From the IMG/VR virus record IMGVR_UViG_3300037010_002464: a stretch of DNA of 64,000 bases; one strand, given 5' to 3'. Below the pieces are notes generated by a model. It had not been told where the DNA came from. It worked only from the letters and a program-made list of their open reading frames with translations, and made no database searches. Position 1 is the stretch's first letter. Each line of letters starts with the position of its first letter. Positions 42,813-45,703 of this stretch are shown in pieces. The DNA is from a virus. The translations under genes were made by a program, and so were the position numbers.

Positions 42813-43640
42813 TTAGAGTGGCCTCAATTTCGGCTCACCACCGTTGAAGAACTCGGCCACGTTGTCTAGCTGGTGGATGCTGAGCCATTGAGTATCAACG
42901 CGGACCTCATGCCTGGTCACAGGCTCGCCGGCGGCCGGACGCTTGGCCAAAGGGATGCGCTGTCGAACCTCCTCGTCCAGCGGCTTGAGGAAGGAGACAT
43001 GCCGCAGGTAGGCGCCGTTAGTGTAGGTAGGTGGCAGGCTCTCCCAGTCGAAGCCTCGCTCCTTGAGCAGCTCACGACGGTCTTGCATGCTGATGCCATG
43101 CAGCTCACGCTCAGGCGCAACGACACGGGCTGCGGTGCTCACAGCGTTCTTGACCGCGTCCTTCTCACGCCAGGTAAAAGCGTCCAACACGTCCAGCTCC
43201 GTGGGCACCTCCCACATGCGGCAGTCAAAGGCCGGCGGCTCGTTGAGCTCCAAGTAGCGAGTCGGGTCAGTCCGCATCAGGGTATCGAGGAATCGGCCAG
43301 TGAAGGTCGCCGACAGCAGGCTCACGTTCTTCTGCTCACGCATGTTGAACTCGAGCTTGTCACGATGCCAGCAGAAGGTGGCTTCATCAGACTGCACATA
43401 GGCCAAGCGCGGCCGCATCTTTGTGAAGGTACCGGCCGTAGCCTGAATCATGGCTTCGAGGATCCAGGAGTCGACGGGCTTCTGCATGCCCTTTGTGAAG
43501 GTGCTGAATGTACGGCCGTCAACGCGCGCGACAACCCACTCCCAGTCTTGGACAAGCGAGACTCCCGGACGAAAGAAGGAGCGCTCATTAGCCAAGCCCT
43601 CGTAGGCTTTGACCCGGTCACCGAGTGCGTCTGTTTTCAT
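42813..43640 (-). CDS. thg1: tRNA(His) guanylyltransferase Thg1-like 3'-5' polymerase
   Basis: RVK-YE, VARVDGRTFSTFT, YVQSDE, FDCR, WRE-DA-KN. Confidence 0.92.
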   Translation of the reverse strand: MKTDALGDRVKAYEGLANERSFFRPGVSLVQDWEWVVARVDGRTFSTFTKGMQKPVDSWILEAMIQATAGTFTKMRPRLAYVQSDEATFCWHRDKLEFNMREQKNVSLLSATFTGRFLDTLMRTDPTRYLELNEPPAFDCRMWEVPTELDVLDAFTWREKDAVKNAVSTAARVVAPERELHGISMQDRRELLKERGFDWESLPPTYTNGAYLRHVSFLKPLDEEVRQRIPLAKRPAAGEPVTRHEVRVDTQWLSIHQLDNVAEFFNGGEPKLRPL

Positions 43641-44149
43641 TCGAGAGAGTCCAAGTAGTCGTTGTAGGCACGGTGCGCCGAGCGAAGCACGAGCGGCCGC
43701 AGCTTGAGCTTTGACCGCACGTTCTTTGTAGTAAGCTTGCCGGAGCTTAACTTCGTTGCGCCAGAAGGTGTCAACCTTCTTCTGACGCTCTTCGCGCCAG
43801 TGTCGATGAAGTAGCTCTTCCCTACGCGCTCGATGACCTTCATCGCTTCGAATGGGTCAGAGCCGCCGTAGTCGTCCTCGCTGTCCGGGGTGACCGTGAC
43901 AGAGATGGCCATGAGGCCAGCGCCCGCGTCAAATGAGACAGCTAAGGCTGCAGAGTCCTCGTTGCGGAGGAGGTTGTAGCGACCTACGACACGGGTGAAC
44001 CGAGGAGCCTGCTTGATCGGATGATGCTTGGCTTGGAGCATGCGCAGCTGCTCCTTGAACTTGTCACCCTTCGGGACGCCGCTGCCCTGCTCGATGCCGA
44101 AGTCGCACCAGGAATCCGAGCTCACTTGTTGAGTGTCTTCTTGAGCCAT
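43637..44149 (-). CDS. Hypothetical protein
   Basis: Coupled ORF within the cluster. Confidence 0.6.
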
Positions 44150-44481
44150 GCTTCACCACCTTTAGCTTGCAGCTTTTCGTGTTGCCGATAGGTGAGCTCG
44201 GTCGTAAAAGTGACCGTGCTCTTGGTTGTACGGCACCCCCGCTCCCGCAGCGTACCCATTGCCTCGTTGATCAGCTTGACGTAGTCGCCGACGGTCTTCA
44301 CATTCTCGATGTCATCGTCGCTGAGCTCGATACGAAACTCGTCTTCGACAGCCATGACCAGCTCAACCGCATCGAGGCTGTCCAGCATACCGTCGGCTTT
44401 GAGCTTCGAGAGCTGGGTATCAGGCGCTAGCTTAAGCACCTCCTCTGAGTAGCCGGTCTGCTCAAGATGGTCTTGAGCTAG
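44122..44481 (-). CDS. Acyl carrier protein-like (start uncertain)
   Basis: [28 protein letters not shown]; frame open up to the ArfA stop at 44482. Confidence 0.8.
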
Positions 44482-44655
44482 TCAGGTGAGAGAGTCGTCA
44501 TCTGGAATTGCCTTCTTGCGTTCGAATGAGCCCTTACCCTTGCGCTGCCGTTGGATGCGCTGCCGGTACTTGGGCGTTAGCAGGTCACGCGCGATCGGGT
44601 CACGCGGCCTTTGAATCGGGATGACGAGGGTGTTCTCGTCCTTCTCATCAGCCAT
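44482..44655 (-). CDS. arfA: Alternative ribosome-rescue factor A-like (57 aa)
   Basis: Translated by hand: ...DPIARDLLTPKYRQRIQRQRKGKGSFERKK...; missed by the ORF track. Confidence 0.85.
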   Translation of the reverse strand: MADEKDENTLVIPIQRPRDPIARDLLTPKYRQRIQRQRKGKGSFERKKAIPDDDSLT

Positions 44656-45703
44656 GATGATAGACCTTGGTCAAGGCTTCGATGCGAGCATGCTTGAGAG
44701 CCAGGCCGATCTCCTTGCCAGGCAGGCCCAGGAACGGCTCGGCCAGCACGCCGTTGACTGCCTTAACGCCTTGCTCCAGGAGCTCGAGCTCAACAGGATC
44801 TGTGAACACCATGGCTCGACGCACTTGCGCCCACAGGCCACGGGTGGCTCCGGTTTGCTGCATGTCATCGAGCAGGCTGACAGGATTTGAGCGATCCCAT
44901 TTGCGAGTGATCACGTCAAAGGCCTTGACGGTCCCGCCAGGCAGGCCGCGTGCAGCGGCCTCGGTGATACGGTTGACGGCACCACCATGCTTGATCAGCC
45001 AAGCCAGCACTAAGTCAGGCTCTCGAGTCTTGTTGAGCAAAGCTTGGGTGAAGTCGGCGTCCATCGTGCGTAAAGCAGCAAGGCCTTTGACACGGCCGAA
45101 GGCCTTCATGACATAGAGCACCCTGAAGAAACGCATCGGGTCCGGCGTCTCCAAGGCTTTGACCAGCTCAGCCCAGATCCGCTCTTGGGACAGCTCGTTC
45201 AGCTGGCCGTGCTTGATCATGTCCTCGCACAGCTCGATAGTTTCGACGGCGATGTCAAAGTCCGGAAACTTGCCAGCGAAGCGGGCCAGCCGCAGGACAC
45301 GGAGCGGATCCTCGCAAAAGGCTTTGCTCGTGTGCCTCAACACCTTGACTTGTAGGTCACGCCTGCCACTGTAAGGGTCAACCAGCTCCCCTGTCTTCGT
45401 GTGCTTGGCCATCGAGTTGATGGTCAAGTCACGGCGGGCCAGGTCATCCTCAATCGTGACGGTGGGCGCGGCGTCAACCTCGAAGCCGTGATAGCCAACA
45501 GCCACCTTGCGTTCGATTCGAGCCAGCGCCCATTGGTCGCCGTTCTGTGGGTGCAAGAACACCGGAAAGTCGGCGCCGACCTTCTCAAAGCCGAGCTTCA
45601 ACATCTCGGCCTCGGTGGCGCCGGTGACCACGTAGTCATGGTCCGAAGGTGTCAAGCCCAGCAGCTCGTCACGGACTGAGCCGCCCACAGCGTAAACTTC
45701 CAT
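44648..45703 (-). CDS. cca: tRNA nucleotidyltransferase (CCA-adding, class II, no HD domain seen)
   Basis: VGGSVRD-LLG, DHDYVV, VGADFPVF, ALAR-ERK, DL-RRDLTIN, EDPLRVLR-ARF, ER-W-E. Confidence 0.93.
   Translation of the reverse strand: MEVYAVGGSVRDELLGLTPSDHDYVVTGATEAEMLKLGFEKVGADFPVFLHPQNGDQWALARIERKVAVGYHGFEVDAAPTVTIEDDLARRDLTINSMAKHTKTGELVDPYSGRRDLQVKVLRHTSKAFCEDPLRVLRLARFAGKFPDFDIAVETIELCEDMIKHGQLNELSQERIWAELVKALETPDPMRFFRVLYVMKAFGRVKGLAALRTMDADFTQALLNKTREPDLVLAWLIKHGGAVNRITEAAARGLPGGTVKAFDVITRKWDRSNPVSLLDDMQQTGATRGLWAQVRRAMVFTDPVELELLEQGVKAVNGVLAEPFLGLPGKEIGLALKHARIEALTKVYHHG

Follow-up and report, generated by a model that had tools for sequence, protein, structure and literature searches.

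Does the UGA that closes the arfA gene of this phage end one protein, or does it lie inside a larger one? The window, by which we mean the whole 64,000-nucleotide stretch analysed here, comes from an uncultured large phage. On its minus strand a small gene for an ArfA-like ribosome-rescue factor stops at a single UGA, past which the same frame runs on into an acyl carrier protein (ACP). The preliminary description offered two readings of this arrangement: programmed readthrough yielding an ArfA-ACP fusion, or a 1-nt deletion that had disconnected the ACP from an ATG at 44501. The evidence below favors, with a probability of roughly 70%, the reading that the arfA-UGA-ACP frame arose incidentally, when a recent lesion specific to this strain struck the ACP gene at its 5' end. 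The ACP is then most likely a fresh pseudogene that gives rise, at best, to traces of an ArfA-ACP fusion through the ordinary leakiness of UGA-C.

Anatomy of the arfA-ACP junction

The features of the junction are as follows.

44655-44482, minus strand: arfA, a 57-aa, stop-terminated ArfA-like ribosome-rescue factor
44484-44482, minus strand: UGA stop of arfA, in the context UGA-C-UAG and preceded by the codons CTC ACC
44478-44501, minus strand: vestigial ACP start, with ATG 44501, seven codons (MTTLSPD) and then TAG at 44480-44478
44478-44460, minus strand: perfect 8-bp hairpin (5' arm 44478-44471, loop 44470-44468, 3' arm 44467-44460)
44122-44481, minus strand: ACP body, 119 codons plus stop in the arfA frame, with no start codon
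44122-44439, minus strand: ORF called as ACP by gene callers, 105 aa from a GTG, which would be without helix I
43637-44149, minus strand: next gene, 170 aa, function unassigned, overlapping the ACP end by 28 nt

The layout agrees with the one first described, in that arfA ends in ACC TGA and 119 stop-free codons follow in its frame, up to a TGA at 44124-44122. Genes are tightly packed on both sides: the first 8 nt of arfA, beginning with its ATG, are shared with the end of the CCA-adding enzyme gene (44648-45703), and the 28-nt overlap at the ACP end recurs in the closest relative. The remark that the ACP has no convincing start was also accurate. From the TGA to GTG 44439 there is no in-frame ATG, GTG, TTG or near-cognate start, and a GGAGG directly abuts the GTG with a spacer of zero. 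ATG 44501, by contrast with the ACP body, lies in the +1 frame relative to arfA, and it has a GAAGG Shine-Dalgarno-like element 9-10 nt upstream. The hairpin, GCUCAAGA-CCA-UCUUGAGC with a 3-nt loop, begins 3 nt past the UGA exactly as reported and folds at -11.0 kcal/mol when taken alone.

By sequence, the window protein is a member of the ArfA family. It scores 29.7 bits against Pfam ArfA PF03889 (cutoff 25.5), matching positions 23-41 of the 44-position profile, and it is 71% identical to the 55-aa arfA product of the closest relative. A profile of 29 phage-type homologues matches E. coli ArfA structures (5u4i and others) over residues 14-49 with E = 4e-8. The conserved core (..RQR..KGKGS.. 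region) is common to the window protein and E. coli ArfA (PF03889; PDB 5u4i, 5mdv, 5h5u). At 57 aa, the protein is about the size of the active, truncated form of E. coli ArfA. [quoted passage not shown] In contrast, arfA of the window and of its five relatives stops at a regular UGA and contains no internal hairpin, so that the preliminary contrast between a short, stop-terminated ArfA and the non-stop E. coli gene extends to six of six members of this phage clade. The synthesis from non-stop mRNA that marks proteobacterial arfA is thus absent from the window, where the UGA precedes the hairpin; that trait is a regulatory one and is no requirement for membership of the ArfA family. As judged from its reading frame, the window ArfA is constitutively translatable and unaffected by the ACP lesion.

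ArfA-like genes are not confined to this clade. Gp30 of pelagiphage HTVC027P carries an ArfA annotation (PMC12753301), and phage ArfA as a category is therefore not new; this protein gives a weak tblastn match to the window ArfA, and the two are phage-encoded ArfA-domain proteins that are only distantly related. Stop-terminated ArfA-like genes of 40-55 aa with the core RDPIA[RK]DL.TPKYR.R make up a large family in viral contigs (IMG/VR loci L104-L178 plus L008-L017). Among these, 34 of 52 distinct genes stop at TGA, compared with 30% of neighboring long ORFs, and TGA is in the majority in eight of nine sequence clusters. The excess may not reflect a link to RF2, because the sequences are related to each other and because one subgroup has a strong promoter downstream whose -35 box, TTGACA, includes the TGA.

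The ACP consists of a PP-binding domain with the phosphopantetheine site DSLD (Ser codon at 44379-44377) followed by a conserved C-terminal helical extension of ∼45 aa. It scores 32 bits against PF00550 (cutoff 20.8), where only profile positions 28-67 are matched, and the N-terminal third goes unrecognized by the model. The DSLD motif is present in the window and invariant across our alignments. Within the clade the extension spans ∼45-60 aa and shares the motif ELT..Q..K...GG..WL...L. AlphaFold2 (AF2) predicts three helices for it; it has no Pfam match and is absent from one relative, L183. The intervals in which it was noted are as follows.

Window, 44122-44260, minus strand: ACP C-terminal extension
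P0002, residues 98-144: ACP C-terminal extension
L179, 641-1063: ACP C-terminal extension
L180, 782-1219: ACP C-terminal extension
L182, 3538-3969: ACP C-terminal extension

Ancestral layout and the lesion in the window

When the post-UGA ORF was searched against proteins, two ENA scaffolds (L018/L019) emerged with an ACP, 144 or 152 aa long, that is 60% identical; they represent the closest relative of the window. Over aligned residues, the identity to the L018 ACP is 64%. These scaffolds are syntenic with the window in the CCA enzyme, the ACP, a 174-aa protein and a Thg1-like protein, and the apparent gap between CCA enzyme and ACP in L018 is an uncalled 55-aa arfA ending in TGA. A further search with the Thg1-like protein added four lineages that are 50-75% identical in that protein. 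The arrangement of the two genes in each relative is given below.

L018/L019: arfA 55 aa; ACP 144 aa; ACP starts 17 nt inside arfA, +1 frame
L180/L181: arfA 45 aa; ACP 145 aa; ATGA overlap, +2 frame
L182: arfA 64 aa; ACP 143 aa; ACP starts 53 nt inside arfA, +1 frame
L183: arfA 62 aa; ACP 91 aa; ACP starts 56 nt inside arfA, +1 frame
L179: arfA cut by the contig end; ACP 140 aa; apart from arfA, behind a 169-aa gene starting at the ATG inside arfA

Each of the five syntenic relatives encodes an ACP that starts at an ATG of its own, includes the entire first helix and is read in a frame other than that of arfA, and in four of the five the ACP ATG overlaps arfA by 4-56 nt. The L018 protein, for instance, begins MKISPD and proceeds directly into a full first helix. 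The GATGA-embedded ATG homologous to 44501 is also in use in L183 and L179. The arfA stop is TGA in six of six clade members and TGAC in five of six. Because five of five relatives carry a separate, out-of-frame ACP, the window layout is, on this comparison of sequences, a derived state that is unique among the clade members compared.

Loss of the ACP in L179 was considered and ruled out, as an intact ACP sits after the 169-aa gene. In that contig (100-200) an ATG in the arfA end, which reads MTT like the window at 44478-44510, starts a 169-aa homologue of the window's 170-aa protein, and the gene order is shuffled around the reused overlapping start site. The short ACP of L183 (2152-2427) carries a seven-residue tandem duplication, IMADQID twice, in its first helix.

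The genes for CCA-adding enzyme, ArfA, extended ACP and Thg1-like protein form a conserved module that occurs in at least six phage lineages, with the following coordinates.

Window, 42813-45703, minus strand: CCA/arfA/ACP/Thg1-like module
L018, 2861-5821: CCA/arfA/ACP/Thg1-like module
L182, 2335-4834: CCA/arfA/ACP/Thg1-like module
L183, 956-3257: CCA/arfA/ACP/Thg1-like module
L180, 80-2034: CCA/arfA/ACP/Thg1-like module

The ACP stays adjacent to arfA even in relatives whose Thg1-like protein is only ∼50% identical, and this conservation beside arfA across diverged relatives suggests that the ACP is probably useful to these phages. The source pipelines missed arfA in L018 (3912-4079), L180 (648-785), L182 (3396-3590) and L183 (2019-2207), where the uncalled gene shows as an empty gap of 125-140 nt between CCA enzyme and ACP; phage arfA is probably under-annotated in general. 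Other collections gave no close relatives. Among INPHARED phages, blastn with the window gave only distant CCA-enzyme matches and tblastn with the ACP only generic phage ACPs. IMG/VR scans likewise found none for three queries (CCA enzyme, 170-aa neighbor and ACP), and a metagenome scan with the ACP alignment yielded nothing but generic ACPs, the pattern MAVEDEF being common. A match of the C-terminal extension to Brevundimonas phage Bajun was discarded, since it crosses a stop codon into a separate gene without evident similarity.

Single-base-type frame errors are frequent in metagenome assemblies, and a sequencing or assembly artefact hiding a true genome with an intact ACP had to be considered. 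The Logan assemblies SRR11727985 and SRR11723145 contain a junction identical to that of the window, with one mismatch in 6.3 kb (99.98% identity), and thus three independent assemblies, including the JGI record of the window, agree base for base. The 57-aa ArfA and 105-aa ACP products are recorded on 6-9 contigs, and the proteins derive from a metagenomic contig that measures up to 174,685 bp. The protein collection contains no intact allele of the window's ACP; the lesion allele, found in several samples, is the only one recorded. The difference from the closest relative is, moreover, 16 nt in a nonrepetitive stretch and no homopolymer slip. An artefact is therefore very unlikely, to the point of being hardly credible, and the preliminary concern about a sequence error at the junction can be set aside: the lesion is real and identical in independent SRA assemblies.

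Alignment of the DNA locates the lesion. The window and L018 share the ACP ATG and CCTGACTA, directly after which L018 carries a net 16 nt more, and homology resumes at TTGAGCAG after this gap. The window thus retains ATG 44501 and its seven codons, homologous to the L018 ACP start. That a frame-shifting deletion cut the ACP off ATG 44501, as had been suggested, is borne out by the intact homologous loci in the relatives; the proposed size is not, as the net loss is 16 nt rather than 1 nt. The effect on the frame is the same. Since 16 equals 1 modulo 3, the ACP body shifts from the +1 frame into the arfA frame, and the junction itself creates the TAG that closes the old ACP frame. For a gene that overlaps arfA in the +1 frame, an indel that shifts the frame has an even chance of bringing it into the arfA frame, and an open frame after the UGA follows automatically because the break is only 3 nt from the stop.

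The hairpin coincides in position with the 16-nt gap relative to L018/L019. No equivalent hairpin lies just past the arfA stop in any of the five relatives; in L018 the conserved TTGAGCAG takes part in a different stem, of 7 bp, that lies further downstream, and near the position of the window's hairpin the relative carries an inverted repeat that is imperfect. Perfect 8-bp hairpins with loops of 3-8 nt number 19 in the 64-kb window, compared with ∼8 in Markov simulations, so that finding one next to a particular stop codon is somewhat unusual without being remarkable. Shuffled versions of the 111-nt context fold just as well (z = -0.64). An intrinsic terminator or RNase III site was rejected: the terminator prediction made no call, a U-tract is missing, and the stem has no more than 8 bp. 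The hairpin is instead probably the scar of a deletion or of a template switch at a quasi-palindrome, and such a mutational scar would explain the stop, the frameshift and the hairpin, all within 25 nt.

Taken together, these observations suggest the following course. In the ancestor, the ACP had its own ATG, placed within arfA or at its 3' end and read in a different frame, as is seen in four of five relatives, and arfA and ACP formed a compact, probably translationally coupled pair inside the CCA-enzyme/ArfA/ACP/Thg1-like cluster. Some 31 nt just past ACP codon 7 were then replaced by ∼15 nt, for the net loss of 16 nt. This event shut the ACP's own frame with a TAG behind MTTLSPD, placed the remaining ACP directly behind the arfA UGA in the arfA frame, and left the perfect 8-bp inverted repeat at the breakpoint. 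ArfA output would be normal and ribosomes initiating at 44501 would yield a heptapeptide, while the ACP body would be translated only upon misreading of the arfA UGA, or else not at all. The lesion would in effect have inactivated the ACP gene.

The ACP body itself shows no sign of decay beyond the 5' lesion: 119 codons are open, DSLD is kept, and the comparison with L018 gives dN 0.27, dS 1.25 and omega 0.22, within the range of the neighboring genes (0.16-0.44). Judged by this ratio, which resembles that of the neighboring genes, the lesion is recent. With omega at 0.22 and DSLD kept, any neutral phase must have been short, by our estimate at most a few percent of the divergence. The intact body fits a very recent lesion, and it would fit continued selection on a readthrough product equally well.

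The 5' end of the protein is a different matter. Only ∼9 residues of the first helix remain after the UGA, with D and H at core positions that are hydrophobic in the relatives, and the hydrophobic pattern that the relatives keep is lost in this region. With a 27-row alignment, AF2 models the relative's ACP at pLDDT 81.9; helix I of this model spans residues 5-20 and precedes the point of the GTG. In a fold search, this model matches solved ACPs in the PDB and corresponds to an ordinary ACP fold; the search gave nothing informative on the C-terminal extension. At equal alignment depth, a construct of ArfA tail, W and window ACP reaches a pLDDT of 55.9, with a helix drawn across the UGA position at low confidence. 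A complete four-helix ACP fold from its own start is thus not found in the window, where helix I is damaged and the PF00550 match begins at position 28.

Possible routes to an ACP product

If the ACP is made, how would ribosomes reach it? On the readthrough hypothesis the ACP is delivered as an ArfA-ACP fusion, with the UGA decoded probably by tRNA-Trp, helped by UGA-C and the hairpin, and more so when RF2 is scarce, for example when it is tied up by ArfA on stalled ribosomes. Much about the locus invites this reading: the frame is open for 119 codons behind a single UGA in the context UGA-C-UAG, a hairpin of -11 kcal/mol lies 3 nt downstream, the body is intact with a dN/dS of 0.22, and with the start codon missing there is no other visible route to the ACP. 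With readthrough, the residues that flank the UGA would fill the first-helix positions of the alignment without a gap, and AF2 draws a low-confidence helix there. Among E. coli termination contexts, UGA-C is the leakiest tetranucleotide. Competition between tRNA-Trp and RF2 sets UGA readthrough at 2-4% in E. coli K-12 (PMC10570021). Basal leakiness and this context therefore lead us to expect a trace of ArfA-ACP fusion without any programmed signal. Reassignment of TGA or a suppressor tRNA is not indicated, as TGA is a normal stop here (the commonest in the window, at 31 of 58 long ORFs, and also the end of the CCA gene) and there are no tRNA genes, suppressor or otherwise, within the 64 kb covered, out of a genome of roughly 175 kb.

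Several observations weigh against a functional signal. The in-frame layout and the hairpin occur in one strain only and on a deletion, whereas the five relatives keep separate, out-of-frame genes with their own ATG and without the hairpin. An exhaustive phmmer search with ArfA among 1.84 billion representative proteins gave 28 matches, all of 44-69 aa and none fused, and a scan of viral contigs gave 75 loci with 52 distinct small, stop-terminated ArfA-like proteins, again none fused. The arfA frame is what any frame-shifting indel here would produce half of the time. Known stimulators of readthrough are located further downstream of the stop; a hairpin that starts only 3 nt past it would have its base inside the mRNA channel when the UGA is in the A site. 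The ArfA C-terminus sits in the mRNA tunnel (PMC5378476), and from this location a folded domain attached to it may disturb ArfA function. The junction helix, with D and H at core positions, is modeled poorly. Programmed readthrough at the arfA UGA, as first proposed, is hence not supported, the relatives having an intact, independent ACP, an unconserved layout and hairpin, and no fused ArfA; functional readthrough in the window strain is unlikely. We hold it similarly unlikely, if anything a little more so, that the ACP is reachable only via decoding of the RF2-specific UGA, with the amount of fusion varying inversely with free RF2, and that the locus represents a newborn recoding or fusion intermediate that is tolerated or exploited.

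Two further routes would bypass the arfA stop. Initiation at GTG 44439, giving a 105-aa truncated ACP, or termination-reinitiation downstream of arfA would rely on what is the longest conventional ORF, one that pipelines call in all assemblies. The GGAGG that abuts the GTG without a spacer speaks against this, as does the homologous codon in the relatives, which is an internal Val with no Shine-Dalgarno element; of the four helices of an ACP, the product would also be missing the entire first one, and the Pfam match begins at profile position 28 already. We regard this route as improbable. More improbable yet is another form of recoding from ATG 44501, either a short hop of peptidyl-tRNA-Asp from GAC 44483-44481 to GAC 44472-44470 or a -1 frameshift at GAC-TAG. 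The ATG keeps its Shine-Dalgarno-like element, the stop after the take-off GAC supplies with its final base the start of the hairpin, and the ACP frame contains a second GAC 11 nt further on, a set of matched codons, stop and hairpin that resembles the T4 gene 60 bypass. Spontaneous translational hops are rare, though, and a GAC repeat within 11 nt arises easily by chance. The site lacks a slippery heptamer that could support a -1 shift, the nascent-peptide signal of gene 60 has no counterpart in the seven-residue peptide, and the first helix of the product would be even shorter. The features are absent in the relatives, which need no recoding. The recent lesion with a nascent pseudogene thus remains our preferred reading.

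Implications and comparison with known systems

For annotation, the 105-aa "ACP" of the window phage should be read as a headless gene, and the arfA upstream of the ACP as one that gene callers overlook in the majority of relatives. What really forms the unit is a pair of overlapping genes, arfA and ACP, set in a cluster for tRNA repair and ribosome rescue. For work on recoding, the locus is a caution: one deletion at the start of an overlapping gene can yield a frame that continues across a stop into a hairpin, and conservation needs to be checked before readthrough is proposed. Were the readthrough reading true, the locus would offer a rare snapshot of the birth of a readthrough fusion in which RF2 availability is linked to a phage protein. 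A more promising lead may be the overlapping arfA-ACP pair itself, in which an extended ACP is conserved alongside genes for ribosome rescue and tRNA repair.

Three known systems help to place the junction. In phage Q-beta, readthrough of the coat protein UGA produces A1. The window shares with it a UGA-ended phage gene, an in-frame extension and the prospect of tRNA-Trp decoding at a few percent; in contrast to the conserved and essential Q-beta extension, the window layout is found in one strain, was born of a deletion and joins genes that are independent elsewhere. What recalls the T4 gene 60 bypass is a codon-stop pair at a hairpin's base and the recurrence of this codon further on, in the frame by which the protein continues, but the gap is 11 nt rather than 50 nt, and there is neither a nascent-peptide signal nor conservation. 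The relatives, with the ACP ATG 4-56 nt inside arfA and a classic ATGA in L180, resemble ATGA-type overlapping, translationally coupled gene pairs; the window differs from such pairs in that its downstream gene has lost the frame connection to its ATG.
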